Shown here piece by piece: positions 2,040 to 54,557 of a DNA stretch of 62,112 nt (its first letter is position 1; every line of letters starts with the position of its first letter). The stretch is taken from contig JAIPGM010000010.1 of assembly GCA_021735655.1 (NCBI GenBank), positions 1 through 62,112 on the forward strand, written 5' to 3'. The notes below the pieces were generated by a model. It was not told the DNA's origin. It made no database searches and worked only from the letters and a program-made list of their open reading frames with translations. The position numbers and the translations under genes were made by a program. The DNA comes from Candidatus Omnitrophota bacterium (GTDB lineage Bacteria; Omnitrophota; Gorgyraeia; Duberdicusellales; 4484-171).

Positions 2040-2302
2040 AACAGAATTTTCTTTTTTCGTCTAGCCCGAAGTTATTTTTAAAGATAGTTTCTATTTTTCT
2101 AAAAAAATCTTGACATTTTTTATAATTTTGTTATCCTTTATTCTAAGTATTTATGGTGGAGATGACAAAGGCGTCCTTTTTACTTACAGCGAAGTGAAGG
2201 GGCGCTTTCACTATTTTTGAGGGGTTCATTTTTTTTGACTTAGAATGCACAAAAATTGGGCACTTTTTTTACAGCGTTTAATCAACTGGGAGGTAAAAGT
2301 AA

Positions 2303-5300
2303 ATGGCAAGACGCAAAGATATTAAAAAAGTTTTAATTATTGGTTCTGGTCCGATAATCATCGGCCAGGCGTGCGAATTTGACTATTCTGGCACTCAAGC
2401 TTGCAAGGCTTTAAAAGAAGAGAGCTATGAGGTAGTTTTAGTTAACTCTAATCCAGCCACGATCATGACCGATCCTGGTACAGCTGATAAAACCTATATT
2501 GAACCTCTGACTATAGAAAGTCTAGAGGAAATTATTAAAATTGAAAGGCCTGATGGTCTTTTGTCTAATTTGGGTGGTCAGACCGGGCTTAATCTTTCAT
2601 CAGGTCTTTTTAAAACCGGTATTTTAGAGAAGTACGGTGTTGAGATTATTGGGGTTAAGGCTGACGCTATTGAAAGAGGCGAAGATCGTATTGCTTTTAA
2701 AGAGACAATGAATAAGTTGGGCATAGAAATGGCTCGTTCTGCTCCTAGTCATTCAGTTGAAGAAGCTGAAAAAATAGCCTCAGAGTTGGGCTATCCGGTA
2801 GTTTTGCGTCCAGCTTACACCATGGGGGGAACCGGAGGAGGAATTGCCTACAATGTTGAAGAGTTAAGAACGATAGTGGCTAGAGGTTTGGCGGTAAGCA
2901 TAGTTAATCAGGTTTTGGTTGAAGAGTCAGTTATTGGTTGGGAAGAACTAGAGCTGGAAGTGGTCCGTGATGCTAATAATAAAAAGATCACTGTTTGCTT
3001 TATCGAAAATATTGATGCGATGGGGGTACATACTGGAGATAGTTTTTGTACTGCACCAATGTTTACGGTGCCGGAGAAGCTACAAAAGCGGATGCAAGAG
3101 CTTTCTTATAAAATTGTTGATGCGATAGAGGTTGTTGGCGGTACTAATATTCAGTTTGCTCATAATCTAGTTGATGATCGTCTGGTGGTAATTGAGATTA
3201 ACCCTCGAACCTCACGTTCCTCAGCCCTAGCTTCTAAAGCTACTGGTTTTCCGATTGCCCGGATTTCAACCAAATTAGCAGCCGGATTAACCCTGGATGA
3301 AATTCCTTATTGGAGAAAAGGGACTCTTGATAAATACGAGCCTTGGGGCGACTATGTGGTAATTAAATTTGCCCGTTGGGCTTTTGAGAAATTTCCGGCG
3401 GCAAAAGATGTTTTGGGTACACAGATGAAGGCAGTTGGAGAGGTAATGAGCATAGCCAAAACTTTTAAGGAATCGTTTCAAAAAGCGATTCGTTCTTTAG
3501 AAAGTAAAAGGTATGGTTTAGGCGGAGCAAAGAATTTTAAAGAACTTTCTTTAGACAAACTAAAAGAAAAATTAGCTCAGCCTTCCAGTGAGCGGGTGTT
3601 TATTATTTATGAGGCTTTGCGTAAAGGGATGAGCGTTGAAGAGCTTTATCAGCTAACCTTTATCGGTCGTCAGTTTCTTAAGGAGATGCAGGAGTTAGTT
3701 CAATTTGAAGAGGAATTACTTAAAAGTTCATGGAAAGACTTACCTAATGAAAAATTAGCTAAAGCTAAAGAGTGGGGTTTTTCTGACCGTTATCTAGCCG
3801 GATTGTTTAATATTAAGGAAAAAGAAGTTAGAACTAAACGTTTGGCCATTGGAAAAAAAGTTGCCTATGAGCCAGTTCCGGTCAGTGGTGTGGAAAATGC
3901 CGCTTATTACTATTCAACCTATAATGCTAAAGATAAAGTTGAAGTTTCCGATAATAAAAAAATAATGATTTTGGGTGGCGGACCTAATCGTATTGGCCAG
4001 GGTATTGAGTTCGACTATACCTGTGTGCATGCGGCTTTTACTCTTCGTGATGAAGGCTATGAATCGATAATGGTCAATTGCAATCCCGAGACAGTCTCTA
4101 CTGATTATGATACTTCTGACAAGTTATATTTTGAGCCTTTAACCATTGAAGATGTTTTAGCAATCTACGATAAAGAAAAGCCGATTGGAGCAATTGTTCA
4201 ATTTGGAGGTCAAACTCCTTTAAACTTGGCTAAAGAGTTAAAAGAAAATGGGGTAAATATTCTTGGTACAACACCGGAGAGTATAGATTTGGCCGAAGAC
4301 CGAGAGCGTTTTCGAGAAAAGATGATAAAATTGGAAATTCCTCAACCAGAAAGCGGCACAGCAAGATCACTCGAAGAAGCTTTAAAGATTGCTAGAGAAA
4401 TTGGTTTTCCGCTGATGGTTCGACCTTCCTATGTGCTTGGTGGTCGAGGTATGGAGGTTATCTATGATGAAGAAGCTTTACAAAAGTACGCCAAGGAAGC
4501 AATAAAGGTTAGCCCGGAGCATCCGATGCTTATTGATAAGTTTCTAGAGCATGCGGTTGAAGTTGAGGTTGACGCCTTGGCTGATGGTCAAGATGCTTTT
4601 GTTGCTGCGGTTATGGAGCATATTGAGCTAGCTGGAGTTCATTCCGGAGATTCGGCCTGTGCCATACCTACTAGAACTGTTACTCAGGAGCAGCTAAAGA
4701 CAATAGACGAATATACGGTTAAGATTGCCAAAGAACTTAAGGTAATTGGATTAATGAATATACAGTATGCTATTTGTGATGATAAAGTTTATATCTTAGA
4801 GGCAAATTCTAGAGCTTCACGTACAGTTCCGATTGTTTCTAAGATTACTGGAACCTCTATGGCTAGGATCGCTACTCAGCTTATGCTTGGTAAAAAGATT
4901 GCAGATTTCCCTGAACTAAAAACTCGAAAGTTACCTTATGTCGGAGTGAAGGAAGCGGTTTTTCCTTTTAATATGTTTCCTGAAGTAGATCCGTTGCTAG
5001 GTCCTGAGATGAGGGCAACTGGGGAGGTTATGGGCATTGGCGAAACTTTTGGAGCGGCTTTTTATAAGGCTCAGGCTGCAGCCGGTACTGCTTTACCTTT
5101 AGCTGGTAATGTTCTTTTGACCGTGAATGATAAGGATAAGTCGGAGCTGCTACCGATTGCTAAAAAAATTAAAAAGTTAGGGTTCAATATTTACACTACT
5201 GAGGGGACAAGTAGCTTTTTGGAAAAAGGGGGCGTAGAGAGTATTTTGATAAAAAAGTTGCATCAAGGAAGACCGAACATTGCAGATTTGATAAAAAATA

Positions 5301-5506
5301 AAGAGATTCATTTAGTTATCAATACTCCCGCTGGACGTAACAGCAAGCATGATGATAGCTATATTCGAATGCTAGCTATCCAACAGAAAATTCCTTATAT
5401 AACATCAATGGCTGCTGCTCAAGCCAGCGTTGAGGGAATAGAATCTGCTATCGGCGCGAAGTGTCCGCCAAAGTCTTTACAGGATTATTACCGGTTGCTT
5501 GTTTAA
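2303..5506 (+). CDS. carB: Carbamoyl-phosphate synthase large subunit
   Basis: 1067 aa with two ATP-grasp halves, each with a conserved glycine-rich signature ([19 protein letters not shown]; [17 protein letters not shown]), and a C-terminal MGS-like domain. No carA is adjacent. Confidence 0.95.
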
Positions 5507-5519
5507 TTTGGAGAATATA

Positions 5520-7037
5520 ATGGTAAAAAAAATCGGTTTTGATAATGAGAAGTATTTAGAAGAACAGAGCCAGGCAATTCTTGAGCGGGTGGAAAGGTTT
5601 AATAATAAGCTCTATCTAGAGTTTGGTGGAAAAATCGTTTTTGATTATCATGCTTCAAGAGTTTTACCGGGATTTGATCCTAACGTGAAGATGCGGCTTT
5701 TGCAAAAGTTGAAAGATAAGGCCGATATTATTCTTTGTATCTATGCTGGCGATATTGAAAGAAGAAAAGTGCGAGCCGATTTTGGCATTACCTATGATGT
5801 CGACGCGCTTAAGCTGATAGATGATTTAAGAGCTTGGGAGATCAATGTTGCGGCAGTAGTGATTACTCGTTTTGAAGATCAGCCTTCAGCAATAATTTTT
5901 AAAAATAAACTCGAGCGGAGAGGAGTAAAGGTTCATACTCATCGATTTACTAAGGGCTATCCTACTGATGTAGATTTGGTAGTTAGTGATAAAGGCTATG
6001 GTGCAAATGCCTATATTGAAACCGAAAAGCCGTTGGTCGTGGTCACCGGACCTGGCCCAGGGAGTGGAAAGTTAGCTACCTGCCTTTCTCAGTGTTATCA
6101 TGAGTACAAAAGAGGCGTAAAGGCTGGCTACGCTAAGTTTGAAACTTTTCCAATTTGGAACATCCCGCTTAAACATCCGGTAAATATTGCCTATGAGGCA
6201 GCTACTGCTGATTTAAGAGATTTTAACTTAGTAGATCCTTTTCATTTGGAAACTTATGCTGAGACATCAATCAATTACAATCGCGACGTAGACGCTTTTC
6301 CCTTGTTGCGGAGAATTTTAGAAAAGATAACTAAGGACGAATCGTTTTATAAATCTCCGACTGATATGGGGGTGAACCGAGCTGGATTTGGGATTGTTGA
6401 CGATGCAGTCGTTAGGGAAGCAGCCAAACAAGAGATTATTCGCAGATATTTTCGCTATCGTTGTGAATATGTAATGGGTTTTGTTGATAAGGGAACAGTT
6501 GAAAGATGCGAATTGGTAATGAAAGAGCTTAAACTTGATCCTCAAGACAGAGTAGTAGTTGCCCCGGCCCATGAATCTGCTAAGCAAGCACAGGGCAAGG
6601 GTAAAGTTAACGGAGATATCTTTTGCGGTGCAGCTATCGAGTTAAAAGACGGATCAATCGTAACCGGAAAGAACTCTTCTTTAATGAATGCTCCTTCAAG
6701 TTTAATTTTAAATGCGATAAAAGAATTGGCCGAAATTCCTGATAAGATTCATCTATTATCACCGGTAATACTTAAATCGATTGAAGATTTAAAGAAGAGT
6801 TTATCTAGTAGTGCTGATTTGAGCTTAGATTTAGAGGAGACACTTATTGCTTTAAGTATAAGCGCGACTACTAATCCAACTACCCAGTTAGCTATAGAAA
6901 AGTTAAAAGAATTAAAAGGCTGTGAAGTTCATACGACGCATATTCCGGCCCCCGGCGATGAAGCCGGTTTAAGGAGTTTAGGGGTTAATCTTACTAGTGA
7001 CCCTAATTTTTCTTCTAAGAGTCTTTTTGTTGTATAA
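5520..7037 (+). CDS. Conserved ~500 aa protein of unknown function, probably the DUF1846/UPF0371 family
   Basis: Start taken at the ATG at 5520 ([12 protein letters not shown]...), 5 nt after a GGAGA SD. The listed ORF begins at an in-frame ATG at 5499 that overlaps the carB stop. Family call is from memory of the UPF0371 N-terminus and length, not verified. Confidence 0.55.
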
Positions 7038-7080
7038 GTACAACTAAGTTCTGAAAACGATTTGATTAGGAGGTAAAGCT

Positions 7081-8529
7081 ATGAGTGGAATTTTTGGAGC
7101 AGTTTCTAAAAATAATTGTGCAGAGATTATACTTTATGGTACAGATTATCATTCGCATTTAGGAACTGAATACGGTGGCATGGCAGTGTTAGGTGAGACC
7201 TTCCAGCGGCAAATACACAATATTGCCCAAACTCAATTTAAATCTAAATTTTATGATGAATATAAGCAGATGAAGGGCAATAAGGGCATTGGTGTTATAA
7301 GTGCTCTAGAAGAGCAGCCGATGTATTTAAATTCTAAATTTGGCCCTTTTTGTATTGTTACTAATGGATTAATTGAGAATATTTCTGAATTAGCAAAAGA
7401 TCTTCTTAGGGGGGGGGTTTCTTTTACCGAGATAAGCAAATATGAAGTTAACGAGACTGAACTAGTAGCAAAGTTAATTAATCAAGGTAAAGATTTAATT
7501 GATGGTATCGAGCAAGCGTTTGCTAAAATTCAAGGATCTTGTTCTCTTTTATTGCTTAATAAGGATGGTGTATATGCTGCTAGAGACAAGTTCGGCTACA
7601 CTCCGCTTGTAGTCGGCCAGCGTGCTGATGCTATGGCAATTACATCAGAAAGTTGTAGTTTTGTGAATAATGATTTTAAAATAGTTAAATATTTAGAACC
7701 GGGCGAGATAGTTTTAGTTACCGAAAAGGGAATGGAGCAGAAGAAACCCGGTGGCAGCACTAATCAAATTTGTGCTTTTTTCTGGATTTACACTGGATTT
7801 CCGGCTTCAAGTTACGAAGGTATCAATACCGAAATCGTAAGGGAGCGTTGTGGTCGTCAGCTTGCCCGTGGCGATAAAGATATAGAGGTAGATGTTGTTT
7901 CAGGAGTTCCTGATTCTGGGGCAGCTCATGCTATTGGTTATGCTATCGAGAGTGGTAAACCTTACCGCAGACCTTTAGTTAAATATACTCCCGGATATGG
8001 CCGTAGTTATATTCCACCTTCTCAAGTTACCCGCGATTTAATAGCGAAGATGAAACTAATTTCGATTAAGGAAATTATTGATGGCAACCGAATCGTTGTT
8101 TGTGAAGATTCAATTGTTCGGGGAACTCAATTGAAGAATTTTACCGTAAAAAAACTTTGGGATTCAGGAGCTAAGGAAATTCATGTTCGGCCGGCTTGTC
8201 CGCCGCTTATGTTTCATTGTCGATTTAACCTTTCAACTCGCAGCAGTGACGAGCTTGTAGCTCGTCGGGCAATCCGAAGCTTGGAGGGTCGCGATATAAA
8301 AGACTTATCCGAGTACCTTGATCCGAATTCTCAAAAATATAAGGAAATGTTGGATTGGATTGCCAAGGATTTACAAGTTACCACTCTTAGGTATCAAACC
8401 GTAGACGATATGGTTGAGGCAATCGGCTTACCTAAGGAGAAACTTTGTCTTTACTGCTGGACCGGTGAATGTCCAGGATCAAAGAGCTGCGACCAAAATA
8501 GTTGTTCAACAGGTTGCCAAACAAAGTAA
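7081..8529 (+). CDS. Amidophosphoribosyltransferase (PurF)-family protein with Ser replacing the N-terminal nucleophile Cys (MSGIFG) and a C-terminal Cys-rich tail
   Basis: Strong SD (TAGGAGGTAAAGCTATG). Class II GATase fold motifs (KGIGVISAL, FCIVTNGLIENISEL), a PRTase motif (VVCEDSIVRGTQL) and a PP-loop region (DVVSGVPDSGAAHAIGYAIESGKPYRRP) align with E. coli and B. subtilis PurF. The C-terminus is CLYCWTGECPGSKSCDQNSCSTGCQTK. Confidence 0.75.
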   Translation: MSGIFGAVSKNNCAEIILYGTDYHSHLGTEYGGMAVLGETFQRQIHNIAQTQFKSKFYDEYKQMKGNKGIGVISALEEQPMYLNSKFGPFCIVTNGLIENISELAKDLLRGGVSFTEISKYEVNETELVAKLINQGKDLIDGIEQAFAKIQGSCSLLLLNKDGVYAARDKFGYTPLVVGQRADAMAITSESCSFVNNDFKIVKYLEPGEIVLVTEKGMEQKKPGGSTNQICAFFWIYTGFPASSYEGINTEIVRERCGRQLARGDKDIEVDVVSGVPDSGAAHAIGYAIESGKPYRRPLVKYTPGYGRSYIPPSQVTRDLIAKMKLISIKEIIDGNRIVVCEDSIVRGTQLKNFTVKKLWDSGAKEIHVRPACPPLMFHCRFNLSTRSSDELVARRAIRSLEGRDIKDLSEYLDPNSQKYKEMLDWIAKDLQVTTLRYQTVDDMVEAIGLPKEKLCLYCWTGECPGSKSCDQNSCSTGCQTK

Positions 8530-8552
8530 ACTAGGTTAAAAAATCGATTATA

Positions 8553-8597
8553 AATGAATAAGGCGTTTCTCCTAATACGAGAAACGCCTTATTCATT
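8553..8597 (+). terminator. 19 bp perfect hairpin (AATGAATAAGGCGTTTCTC-ctaatac-GAGAAACGCCTTATTCATT) downstream of the purF-like gene; no canonical U-tract
   Basis: Perfect inverted repeat at 8553..8571 / 8579..8597. A second, weaker hairpin followed by a T-run lies at 8620..8643 (ACGGA-gagaggg-TCCGT then ggcTTTT). Confidence 0.45.
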
Positions 8598-8827
8598 AAG
8601 AAGACCCCCCTCCCCGAAAACGGAGAGAGGGTCCGTGGCTTTTGACTCTCTAGGACAGAGAGCCTTCACTAAAGGATAACATCTTTTTCCCTTGTGTTTC
8701 AAGAGGTTATGAAAGTATTCGTGAAAACGCTTACAAGGGTTAAATTTGAATATAGTTGCTGTTTTTTATAAAATAACTCAATAAAACCGGGTATCTCTAT
8801 TTCTATCTTATTCAGCTAACATTTTTC

Positions 8828-8856
8828 TTTACAATTTAATTAGTGCAGTGTATAAT
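8828..8856 (+). promoter_or_regulatory. Near-consensus sigma70 promoter (TTTACA-17 nt-TATAAT) for hisG
   Basis: -35 at 8828..8833, exactly 17 nt spacer, -10 TATAAT at 8851..8856. hisG ATG is at 8898. Confidence 0.5.
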
Positions 8857-8897: not shown

Positions 8898-9773
8898 ATG
8901 GATGTATTAAAGTTAGGCATACCTAAGGGAAGTTTACAGGAAAAAACCGTCGAGCTTTTTCGGATGGCCGGTTTTAATATCTATACTAGCAGTCGGTCGT
9001 ATTTTCCGACTATCGACGATTCTCAGGTAAAGGTGGTTATGGTTAGGGCTCAGGAGATGTCTCGCTATGTTGAAGAAGGAGTACTTGACTGCGGGATCAC
9101 CGGAGAAGATTGGGTTTTAGAGAATTCATCGGACGTTTTACGTTTGGCTGAACTGCGTTATGCAAAACGCACGCTTAATAAGGTACGTTGGGTAGTTGCA
9201 GTAAAGGATGATTCTAAAATAAAGAAGCTAGCCGATTTGAAGGGCAAGCGCATCGCCACCGAACTTTTAGGTTATACTAAAAAGTTTTTTAAAGCTAAAA
9301 AAATACCGGTTGATGTTGAGTTTAGTTGGGGGGCAACTGAAGTTAAGGTAAAAAGCGGTCTAGTTGATGCGATTGTTGAGCTTACTGAGACCGGTGAATC
9401 GCTTAGAGCCAATGGTTTAAAGGAAATCGCTACTATTTGTTTGTCGAGTACTCAATTTATCGCTAATAAATTAGCAGTAAAGAATAGCTGGAAGAAAAAG
9501 AAAATTGACTATATACTTTTACTTTTGAAAGGAGCCTTAGAGGCTCGTGATAAAGTGGGTTTGAAACTTAATATTAGGAAAGAAAATTTGGAAGAAATAT
9601 TAGCGCTTTTGCCAGCCTTAAAGAAGCCAACTATTTCTTCTTTAACTTTAAAAGATTGGGTTGCTTGTGAAGTAATTATTGAAGAAAGCCGGGTGCGCGA
9701 AATTCTGCCGCTTCTTAAAGAAAAAGGAGCCCAAGGAATTATCGAATACCCCTTAAATAAAGTTATTTATTAA
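8898..9773 (+). CDS. hisG: ATP phosphoribosyltransferase, long form with C-terminal regulatory domain
   Basis: 291 aa. N-terminal LKLGIPKGSLQEKTVELFRMAGF and DCGITGEDWVLE motifs are typical of HisG. Its length matches the long (HisG-L) form. No other his genes are nearby. Confidence 0.85.
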   Translation: MDVLKLGIPKGSLQEKTVELFRMAGFNIYTSSRSYFPTIDDSQVKVVMVRAQEMSRYVEEGVLDCGITGEDWVLENSSDVLRLAELRYAKRTLNKVRWVVAVKDDSKIKKLADLKGKRIATELLGYTKKFFKAKKIPVDVEFSWGATEVKVKSGLVDAIVELTETGESLRANGLKEIATICLSSTQFIANKLAVKNSWKKKKIDYILLLLKGALEARDKVGLKLNIRKENLEEILALLPALKKPTISSLTLKDWVACEVIIEESRVREILPLLKEKGAQGIIEYPLNKVIY

Positions 9774-52952: not shown

Positions 52953-54557
52953 ATGCTTAAAGTAGTTTTAGCCCAAATTAACCCTACGGTGGGGGCCTTA
53001 GCCGAAAATTGCGCAAAAATAATCAGCTATATAAAACGGGCAAGAGCCAAAGGTGCTGATATCGTTGTTTTTCCGGAATTATCCCTGATTGGCTACCCCC
53101 CGGAAGATTTATTACGAAAAAACCATTTTATTTCAAAAAGCAAACAGTTTTTGAGTTCAATCGTAAGGAACTCGCGAGGGTTGATAGCAGTTATTGGGTT
53201 TGTCGATCAAGAGGGGTTAAATCTTTATAATGCCTCAGCCTTAATCCAGGATGGCAAGATTTGTGACGTCTACCGTAAGGTTATCCTTCCTAATTATGGT
53301 GTATTTGATGAAAAAAGGCATTTTAGTCCCGGAACTGCCTTGTCTGTATATAATTTCGGCAACTATAAGTTTAGTGTAACTATATGTGAAGATATTTGGC
53401 AGAAGGAGACTGTTAGTTTATTAGAAAACTGTGATTTAGATTTTGTTATTAATATTTCTGCTTCACCGTTTAATTTAGGCAAGATGTCTCAGCGAGAAAA
53501 GGTTTTAGCACAGGCTGCCCGGCGCTTAAAGAGTTTTATATTTTATGCTAATTTAATCGGAGGCCAAGATGAGATTGTATTTGATGGCACAAGTAAGGTT
53601 ATATCCCCGCAGGGCAAACTAATAGCTTGTGCAAAAAGATTTCAAGAGGACTTGTTGGTCTTTAATCTTAACCGTAAGAAAAACTATCCAACCAAAAAAA
53701 TCAAGGAAGAAGCTGCGGTGGAGGCGTTCTCGGCCTTAAAGCTTGGTCTTTATGATTATGTTAATAAGAATGGTTTTAAGAAAGTTGTTGTTGGGGTAAG
53801 TGGCGGAATTGACTCAGCAGTGGTGGTTAGTTTAGCGGTGATAGCCTTGGGTAAAGATAATGTTTCAGCATTGCTTATGCCTTCGGTTTTTACCTCAGAT
53901 GCTACTTATCGTGATGCTAAAAAAATATGCGAAAGTTTAGGAATTAAATACTATATTGTCAAAATTAATGACATTCTAAATGCTTACTTTAAGGATCTTT
54001 CAGCTCACTTTAAAGGGAAAAAGCCGGACATTACCGAGGAGAACCTTCAGGCCAGGATTCGTGGTAATATTTTAATGGCCTTTTCGAATAAGTTTGATTA
54101 TCTTGTTCTCAATACTGGGAATAAGAGTGAAGTTTCTTGTGGTTATTGCACTCTTTATGGAGATATGGTTGGAGGATTTGGTGTTTTGAAGGATGTGCCA
54201 AAACTTTTAGTTTATAAATTGGCGCAACAAATTAATAAAATTAGTTCAAAAAAAGTTATTCCAGATTCGGTAATCAAGAGACCACCCTCGGCTGAGCTTA
54301 AAAGCAATCAAAAAGATACTGACAGCCTTCCCGATTATAAATTACTTGATGCGATATTAAAGTTTTATGTTGAGGATGATTTATCTTTGGAAGAAATAGT
54401 TGCTAAAGGCTACAACAAGGCTGTGGTCCGGCGAGTTATTACTATGGTTGATTCGAATGAATATAAGCGGCGTCAGGCTCCGGTAGGCATAAAGATTACC
54501 CCGCGGGCTCTTGGTAAAGATCGACGTATGCCAATTACTAATAAGTTTTCTCAATAA
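52953..54557 (+). CDS. nadE: Glutamine-dependent NAD+ synthetase (N-terminal nitrilase-like glutaminase + C-terminal synthetase)
   Basis: CN-hydrolase domain (FPELSLIGYPPEDL; TICEDIW catalytic Cys) followed by the PP-loop SGGIDSAVV. Confidence 0.9.
   Translation: MLKVVLAQINPTVGALAENCAKIISYIKRARAKGADIVVFPELSLIGYPPEDLLRKNHFISKSKQFLSSIVRNSRGLIAVIGFVDQEGLNLYNASALIQDGKICDVYRKVILPNYGVFDEKRHFSPGTALSVYNFGNYKFSVTICEDIWQKETVSLLENCDLDFVINISASPFNLGKMSQREKVLAQAARRLKSFIFYANLIGGQDEIVFDGTSKVISPQGKLIACAKRFQEDLLVFNLNRKKNYPTKKIKEEAAVEAFSALKLGLYDYVNKNGFKKVVVGVSGGIDSAVVVSLAVIALGKDNVSALLMPSVFTSDATYRDAKKICESLGIKYYIVKINDILNAYFKDLSAHFKGKKPDITEENLQARIRGNILMAFSNKFDYLVLNTGNKSEVSCGYCTLYGDMVGGFGVLKDVPKLLVYKLAQQINKISSKKVIPDSVIKRPPSAELKSNQKDTDSLPDYKLLDAILKFYVEDDLSLEEIVAKGYNKAVVRRVITMVDSNEYKRRQAPVGIKITPRALGKDRRMPITNKFSQ

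Follow-up and report, generated by a model that had tools for sequence, protein, structure and literature searches.

A carB, predicted pyrJ-type and Cys-less purF paralogue gene block in an Omnitrophota contig, and its possible use of free ammonia

Three co-directional open reading frames (ORFs) on the + strand span positions 2303–8529 of a 62,112-bp contig (JAIPGM010000010.1; 35–40% G+C) from a Candidatus Omnitrophica metagenome-assembled genome; the window, below, is this whole contig. A Logan assembly of run SRR12088349 also contains the region. The ORFs are carB (2303–5506), which encodes a full-length carbamoyl-phosphate synthase large subunit of 1067 amino acids, a gene for a 505-amino acid DUF1846 protein (5520–7037), and a gene for a 482-amino acid homologue of the amidophosphoribosyltransferase PurF without the catalytic cysteine (7081–8529), hereafter the PurF paralogue. 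An ORF check agrees with a preliminary description of the locus on the coordinates and strand of all three genes and on the strong Shine-Dalgarno sequence of the third, which reads AGGAGG at 7068–7073 (+), 7 nt 5′ of the ATG. The same description had carB overlapping the next start. This is probably incorrect: homologues and an independent gene call place the DUF1846 start at ATG 5520, with GGAG at 5510–5513, leaving a gap of 13 nt after carB, and an overlap arises only with an alternative TTG at 5499.

The three genes look like one transcription unit because a promoter-like site precedes carB (2110–2137, +; TTGACA-16-TATCCT with TG, 10 of 12 matches in a consensus scan), a perfect 19-bp hairpin in the predicted RNA fold (8553–8597, +) lies 24 nt 3′ of the stop codon of the PurF paralogue, and the next gene, hisG, has a promoter-like site of its own (8828–8856; TTTACA-17-TATAAT, 11 of 12 matches). 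The tally of promoter-like sites in the region is no higher than expected from shuffled sequence, and the site at 2110–2137 is a candidate only. The RNA fold of 8530–8640 has a free energy of −43.8 kcal/mol (z of −6.75; 0 of 200 shuffles equally stable). Its 19-bp hairpin has no U-run on the + strand and probably marks where the transcription unit ends or stabilizes the mRNA.

CarB appears to be an ordinary, standard large subunit whose sequence carries no unusual sign. It scores 1518 bits against NF003671 (cut-off of 599) and 1384 bits against TIGR01369 (cut-off of 1027), its duplicated ATP-grasp architecture is complete (all Pfam CPSase_L domains, with the oligomerization domain, and the MGS-like domain), and it is 79–84% identical to many CarB proteins of Omnitrophota. 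Its earlier portrayal as a glutamine-independent-looking enzyme encoded without carA stands as far as the neighborhood is concerned: tblastn finds no carA in the 62-kb window, and no carA adjoins this type of CarB in six related loci (L002, L007, L021, L039, L091, and L092). The glutamine-independent look finds no support in the sequence of CarB, which scores as standard, and carA is present in another locus, L012. "CarB without CarA" remains a local observation. Unlinked carA and carB are common in bacteria, and isolated carbamoyl-phosphate synthase large subunits can use ammonia. The tblastn searches of the window also returned no canonical purF and no purM, purL, purQ, purB, purD, or purE.

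The product of the second gene is predicted to be a PyrJ-type, ammonia-dependent synthase of cytidine triphosphate (CTP). The profile search bears out the preliminary assignment of this ∼505-amino acid protein as DUF1846/UPF0371-like: it matches both Pfam DUF1846 domains (PF08903, N-terminal, 565 bits; PF20921, C-terminal, 187 bits) and NF010184 (772 bits; cut-off of 631). It aligns over residues 2–500 with a Streptococcus pneumoniae UPF0371 protein of solved structure (PDB 7f00; E of 8e-155, 243 of 489 residues identical) and also with the Corynebacterium diphtheriae structure 3bh1. Judging from species and family, 7f00 (SPRM200_0309) is probably the orthologue of the DUF1846 protein Spd_0310. 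In a dual transposon-sequencing (Tn-seq) preprint on S. pneumoniae, Spd_0310 is synthetic-lethal with pyrG, cytidine rescues the double mutant, and the purified protein, renamed PyrJ, converts uridine triphosphate (UTP) to CTP with ammonia and not with glutamine (bioRxiv 10.1101/2024.09.24.614635).

By these matches, the window gene appears to be a fresh member of the just-described PyrJ family. It resembles pneumococcal PyrJ in being full-length, with both Pfam domains, an NF010184-level score, and ∼50% identity, and it would share the logic of amination by free ammonia instead of glutamine. It differs in that it is known from sequence, belongs to an uncultured phylum of Gram-negative type, and lies in an operon with carB and the PurF paralogue. 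Its place right after carB makes pathway sense because both act in pyrimidine synthesis. The suggestion that the DUF1846 protein is a partner, of unknown function, to the PurF homologue is thus better replaced by that of a stand-alone pyrimidine enzyme.

The PurF paralogue and its family

The product of the third gene (7081–8529, +) begins with MSGIFG and scores 206.6 bits against the purF model TIGR01134, under the cut-off of 350. Its best matches among solved structures are to Bacillus subtilis PurF (1gph and 1ao0; E of ∼1e-53). In a phmmer alignment to the mature chain of that enzyme, Gly3 of the paralogue corresponds to chain residue 2, so Ser2 stands opposite Cys1. Across the same alignment, Arg26 is lost (HRGQE reads SHLGTE, with Leu at the position), Arg73 and Tyr74 are lost (GHVRYAT reads GVISAL), and SDTE reads NETE, with Asp127 replaced by Glu. 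The window protein has no propeptide. It keeps Asn-Gly at the oxyanion position (Asn101-Gly102), although Asn101 is unconserved across the family. A mis-called start that hides a cysteine was considered and is ruled out by an in-frame TGA at 7063–7065 that has no in-frame start between it and the ATG; it is also contradicted by the best 120 homologues, 119 of which begin with MSG and one with MNG. The preliminary description was therefore right that no upstream start is available, but it placed the stop codon at 7066–7068.

The paralogue belongs to a large family. A word-indexed search gave at least 8000 matches, the best 120 of which are 74–87% identical to the query (itself excluded) and include, among named organisms, Omnitrophota, Planctomycetota/Phycisphaerae, and NPL-UPA2. 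When representatives at 50% identity were searched exhaustively, 949 clusters matched at E ≤ 1e-30, canonical PurFs included; the top-scoring representatives bear the motif GTDYHSHLG, and canonical Cys-PurFs appear only from ∼300 bits down. In the paralogue family, GTDYHSHLG replaces LQHRGQ and supplies a conserved D22-Y23-x-x-H26, and the eight-residue RYSTTG loop that holds Arg73 and Tyr74 is deleted throughout. Sixty representatives of 50%-identity clusters combine a GTDYHSHLG-type motif with an intact N-terminus; their residue at position 2 is Gly in 32 cases, Ser in 21, Thr in five, Ala in one, and Lys in one. Members of the Gly type are found in cultured Bacteroidales, Muribaculum intestinale among them.

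The claim that Ser occupies the N-terminal nucleophile (Ntn) position is correct in that Ser2 aligns with Cys1, but Ser is not a substitute for it, as Gly, Ser, and Thr vary at this position in the family. The broader claim, that the protein has no working glutaminase nucleophile, is upheld: a protein that has lost Cys1 and the glutamine-site motifs cannot act as a normal glutamine amidotransferase. The glutaminase site as a whole is dead rather than re-tooled, and the Ser is incidental.

The synthase half, conversely, is intact. The alignment to 1gph and 1ao0 shows VSGVPDSG, KYTPGYGRSYIPPSQ, VVCEDSIVRGTQ, and Cys at the four [4Fe-4S] positions, so that all four ligands, like the Ser at the nucleophile position, are as the preliminary description expected. 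In the family alignment, the motifs GVPDSG and EDSIVRGTQ are present, and C231, C380, C456, C459, K301, R308, Q315, and R318 are invariant or nearly so, as are the residues D343, S344, R347, G348, and T349 of the loop that binds phosphoribosyl pyrophosphate (PRPP). The Fe-S ligands were assigned by alignment to the B. subtilis ligand positions; three of them (C231, C380, and C459) never vary, and the fourth, C456, occurs in 90% or more of the sequences. An AlphaFold2 (AF2) model built from a 26-sequence family alignment (predicted local distance difference test of 92.4, predicted template modeling score of 0.90) superposes on both domains of B. subtilis PurF (1ao0_A; Foldseek template modeling scores of 0.82/0.87, 29% identity), and the two-domain PurF fold is predicted to be kept. 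The family thus appears to combine a dead, degenerate Ntn glutaminase domain with a live type-I phosphoribosyltransferase domain.

Set against the [4Fe-4S] PurF of B. subtilis (1ao0/1gph, TIGR01134), the paralogue shares the two-domain fold, the four cluster Cys, the PRPP loop (EDSIVRGTQ versus DDSIVRGTT), and the flexible loop K..GRS..P.Q..R, and, like canonical PurF, it is also found in purine operons. It differs in having neither an N-terminal Cys (Ser here; Gly, Ser, or Thr in the family) nor a propeptide, in the change of LQHRGQ to TDYHSHLGT, in the deletion of the RYSTTG loop with Arg73/Tyr74, in its score (206.6 versus 350 bits), and in often coexisting with a true PurF. It fails on three features that define the glutamine amidotransferase (Cys1, glutamine site, and equivalog score), and labeling it PurF (EC 2.4.2.14) ahead of an assay would be premature.

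The nearest mention of a Cys-less PurF in the literature searched is Mlab_0150 of Methanocorpusculum labreanum, a purF duplicate with Ser for Cys whose function was left unexplained (Brown et al. 2011, PMC3261824). Compared by description, Mlab_0150 likewise has Ser in place of the nucleophile and coexists with a Cys-PurF, but it is a recent duplicate closest to its organism's own purF, whereas the present family forms a clade that is old, widespread, and set sharply apart. The operon of the window joins CarB, a PyrJ-type protein, and a Cys-less PurF paralogue of an uncharacterized family; CarB is ordinary, and the PyrJ family has already been described.

Other PurF-like groups also depart from the canonical pattern. 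Eight representatives (P0169, P0180, P0198, P0207, P0219, P0222, P0254, and P0269) keep the Cys and LQHRGQ and have lost the RYSTTG loop (GIGHVSL), and further Cys-less groups have FYQQHLGE-type motifs (e.g., P0213, P0227, P0247, and P0252). These variants suggest that the PurF superfamily is more varied than a single NCBIfam model implies.

Neighborhoods of the paralogue and of carB in other genomes

We collected 95 related loci and clustered their neighboring ORFs; counts cover 90 loci and the first 20 kb of the window. Of the 81 loci that contain a family member (the window among them), 70 were informative, with usable flanks. In 13 of these 70, purine genes are found on the same strand as the paralogue and no more than three genes away, with the identities of pur-operon genes confirmed by Pfam. 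In four loci, the paralogue lies between purL/purQ and purM in an operon with no canonical purF; the order is purB-purL-LOG-paralogue-purM-...-purD in L031 and L051, followed by purE in L031, and purL/Q-paralogue-purM in L045 and L050. The order is purQ-paralogue-canonical purF-purM in L043 and L044, and canonical purF (with propeptide)-purM-paralogue in L005, L011, L016, and L017. Three Muribaculaceae genomes have the paralogue immediately after purL, with different downstream genes. A LOG/"lysine decarboxylase" gene (PF03641) is inserted after purL in three loci, between purL and purQ in L044 (8534–9220) and directly 5′ of the paralogue in L031 (4965–5621) and L051 (9286–9969).

In 10 loci, carB is the immediate or next neighbor of the paralogue, with gaps of 14–67 nt and a varying order. 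The arrangement is carB-paralogue in L012, L018, L030, and L008, carB-DUF1846-paralogue in the window, L002, L007, and L040, DUF1846-carB-paralogue in L039, and paralogue-carB in L021. The three-gene linkage is not a matter of chance because it is repeated in L002, L007, L040, and L039; in L002 and L007, the repeated order extends to hisG, which is a conserved 3′ neighbor. CarB proteins encoded next to the paralogue fall into two types, 74–79% and 51–53% identical to that of the window. In L008 (753–4057), the paralogue lies between carB and a gene for a 625-amino acid protein, putatively glmS by length, an MCGIVG start, and similarity only; if that reading holds, three nitrogen-transfer enzymes would be grouped there. 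Other recurrent neighbors, inspected by eye from N-terminal sequences, gave no functional signal and resemble housekeeping proteins (rubrerythrin, methyltransferase, RimI, CoaD, IspG, ProS, and GreA).

The surroundings of carB in relatives feature nitrogen metabolism. In several of the six loci in which this CarB type has no adjoining carA, gdh, a gene with a GltB domain, and glnA sit just upstream of carB. In the complete Omnitrophota genome CP070837 (L091), a CarB 82% identical to that of the window is followed by guaA, purL, a hisA/F-type gene (His_biosynth), and a canonical purF whose product begins with MCAIFG. Because this carB cluster ends in a canonical purF, the paralogue of the window occupies the position of the relative's purF. 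The full series in L091 (6018–19180; CP070837.1) is gdh, a GAF/ANTAR regulator gene, the GltB-domain gene, carB, full-length guaA, purL, the hisA/F-type gene, and purF, which embeds carB among nitrogen-assimilation genes with no adjoining carA. Another relative (L092:8194–9174; GCA_043815545.1) encodes, 5′ of carB-DUF1846 in a gdh/gltB-like/glnA/carB/DUF1846 neighborhood, a 326-amino acid protein that consists only of the ATP-pyrophosphatase and C-terminal part of GMP synthase, with SGGVDSS and no glutaminase domain. It may be another glutaminase-less amidotransferase or part of a two-subunit GuaA.

Nitrogen donor of the block

The best explanation of the block is a nucleotide-biosynthesis operon of anaerobic Omnitrophota whose three enzymes would be able to take free ammonia. 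CarB would supply carbamoyl phosphate for pyrimidines and arginine, either on ammonia by itself or in partnership with a CarA from another part of the genome, and the PyrJ-type protein would aminate UTP with ammonia to CTP. The paralogue would bind PRPP, which free ammonia would attack to give 5-phosphoribosylamine (PRA), and its dead glutaminase domain may persist in a structural or regulatory role, like that of mitochondrial carbamoyl-phosphate synthetase I (CPS I). We infer the ammonia substrate, the PRA product, and any independence of CarB from CarA. The earlier proposal of direct ammonia use is therefore kept as the best available reading, strengthened by the PyrJ precedent, but trimmed with respect to CarB, which is standard and whose independence from carA is local only.

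Belief and doubt are about evenly balanced on the specific prediction that the Cys-less paralogue is an ammonia-dependent PRA synthase. The prediction draws on four lines of evidence, namely that the phosphoribosyltransferase and flexible-loop residues are intact, that the paralogue fills operon slots that are normally those of purF, that the Arg73/Tyr74 loop is deleted, and that PurF of Escherichia coli stripped of its nucleophile loses only the glutamine-dependent reaction. In canonical PurF, the Arg73/Tyr74 loop binds glutamine and gates the ammonia channel. Its deletion would plausibly open that channel to solvent. Vertebrate CPS I is an ammonia-dependent enzyme with a glutaminase-like domain in which Cys is replaced by Ser. 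Like CPS I and the E. coli C1S and C1A mutants as summarized in the literature, the paralogue would keep a dead glutaminase domain or residue and use free ammonia; CPS I, however, is of another enzyme family, the PurF mutants are laboratory constructs, and the natural paralogue family has remodeled the whole site and not one residue. Replacement of Cys1 by Ala or Ser in E. coli PurF is reported to abolish glutamine-dependent activity and to leave ammonia-dependent activity (Mei & Zalkin 1989, as quoted in PMC3261824).

Several observations weigh against this prediction. In L012, a bona fide carA (CPSase_sm_chain and GATase) lies directly upstream of carB and the paralogue; the CarB and PurF paralogue of this locus are 53% and 77% identical, respectively, to those of the window. 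Canonical Cys-PurF is encoded beside or near the paralogue in six loci (L005, L011, L016, L017, L043, and L044). The paralogue is therefore not simply the PurF of its organism and could have another role. The caution that it might be an ordinary paralogue is borne out to the extent that a canonical Cys-PurF adjoins it in other genomes, but the paralogue family is itself uncharacterized. Approximately two thirds of the loci have no nucleotide-related neighbors, and the loci cannot be treated as independent in phylogenetic terms. Conservation of the N-terminal domain is very strong, with 74–87% overall identity across Omnitrophota and Planctomycetota; this conservation and the GTDYHSHLG motif exceed what is expected of a relic and hint at a distinct ligand or function. 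The literature searched holds no characterized Cys-less PurF and no biochemical or genetic data on any family member.

Among alternatives, the one that survives best is that inherited synteny within a single Omnitrophota lineage, in a larger neighborhood of nitrogen and nucleotide genes, is all that holds the three genes together, with no shared ammonia logic and with CarB using a normal CarA encoded elsewhere. Such a view would suit the unlinked carA and carB of many bacteria, the standard scores of CarB, the carA-carB-paralogue order of L012, the full guaA and canonical purF that follow the same type of carB in L091, and the presence of a glutamine-dependent NAD synthetase in the window. We nevertheless consider it doubtful: gene order varies while adjacency is kept (L039, L021, L012, L018, and L030), which argues for selection on linkage, a promoter-like site and a strong hairpin lie on either side of the block, and PyrJ uses ammonia only.

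The paralogue could also be a non-catalytic, regulatory pseudoenzyme that binds PRPP or purine nucleotides, or forms mixed oligomers with canonical PurF, and tunes purine or pyrimidine flux instead of making PRA itself. This is unlikely. The near-invariant PRPP loop, flexible loop, and four Fe-S Cys are the pattern of an active phosphoribosyltransferase, and in L031, L045, L050, and L051, the paralogue is the sole purF-type gene of a pur operon, even if a dead glutaminase site, frequent adjacency to canonical PurF, extreme conservation that includes the N-terminal domain, and a score under the purF equivalog cut-off would all accord with a regulatory protein.

Unlikely to the same degree is a different PRPP-dependent reaction, in which D22-Y23-x-x-H26 would accommodate another donor or nucleophile and the substrate may be tied to the carbamoyl phosphate or carbamate of CarB. 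Its appeal lies in the family-specific, highly conserved motif in place of LQHRGQ, in the adjacency of carB of two types in 10 loci at gaps of 14–67 nt, and in the coexistence with canonical PurF. Association with purL, purQ, or purM is, however, at least as frequent as that with carB, no neighbor indicates a candidate substrate, and most members, which have Gly or Ala where the nucleophile would be, cannot carry out Ntn-type amide hydrolysis.

That the paralogue is an ordinary glutamine-dependent PurF with Ser as its nucleophile, as in Ser- and Thr-type Ntn hydrolases, is highly improbable and is rejected because Gly predominates at position 2 (more than half of the family clusters): Ser2 would become N-terminal once Met is removed and the window protein does keep Asn-Gly at the oxyanion position, but Arg26, Arg73, and Tyr74 are gone, the score is under the purF cut-off, and the C1S mutant of E. 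coli PurF lacks glutamine-dependent activity in the account given in PMC3261824.

Many thousands of database entries bear the name "amidophosphoribosyltransferase" but cannot use glutamine. If the paralogue is indeed an ammonia-dependent PRA synthase, the committed nitrogen-entry steps to PRA and CTP would have glutamine-independent isozymes, with carbamoyl phosphate maybe a third, and such isozymes would be widespread in anaerobes, including gut Bacteroidales. Metabolic reconstructions and predictions of purine auxotrophy for uncultured phyla would change, as would the view of the coupling between nitrogen status and nucleotide synthesis. Linkage to PyrJ, a very recent discovery, yields a concrete and cheaply testable hypothesis. 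More tentatively, and with a chance that we put below even, anaerobes of ammonium-rich habitats (Omnitrophota, Planctomycetota/Phycisphaerae, Bacteroidales, and others) may run a glutamine-independent branch of nucleotide synthesis made of the Cys-less PurF, PyrJ, and possibly CarB without CarA. The remodeled DYHSH domain would then serve to capture ammonium or to sense nitrogen status, and the operon of the window the most compact genomic form of the branch.

Other features of the window

The carB leader (2138–2302) comprises 165 nt between the promoter-like site and carB. It holds a terminator-like hairpin at 2193–2220 (+), formed by AGTGAAGGGGCGCTTTCACT and ATTTTTGAGG and followed by a U-run (ATTTTT), which is a possible attenuator. 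The leader has no Rfam match at E ≤ 1, leaving a riboswitch or PyrR-type element unsupported, and the fold of the whole leader is not significant against shuffles (z of −1.2). Over the whole window, Rfam at the gathering threshold finds one tRNA and nothing else.

The spacer between the stop codon of the PurF paralogue and hisG is unusually long (368 nt) and holds two hairpins in tandem (8553–8634). The first is the perfect 19-bp stem; the second has a C-rich/G-rich stem and, on the minus strand, reads as a terminator with a T-run. The hisG gene (8898–9773, +) encodes a long-form ATP phosphoribosyltransferase (PF01634, PF08029, and TIGR00070).

Farther along, purA, prs, and a glutamine-type NAD synthetase gene are recognizable from their translations. 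The NAD synthetase (52953–54557) is of the glutamine-dependent two-domain form, with TICEDIW in its nitrilase-like half (read from the translation only, unaligned), in agreement with the earlier remark that loss of glutaminase function is not genome-wide. GC skew is uniformly and strongly positive across 1–62112 (0.12–0.27 per 2 kb) and nearly all genes are on the + strand; the entire contig appears to lie on the leading strand of one replichore.

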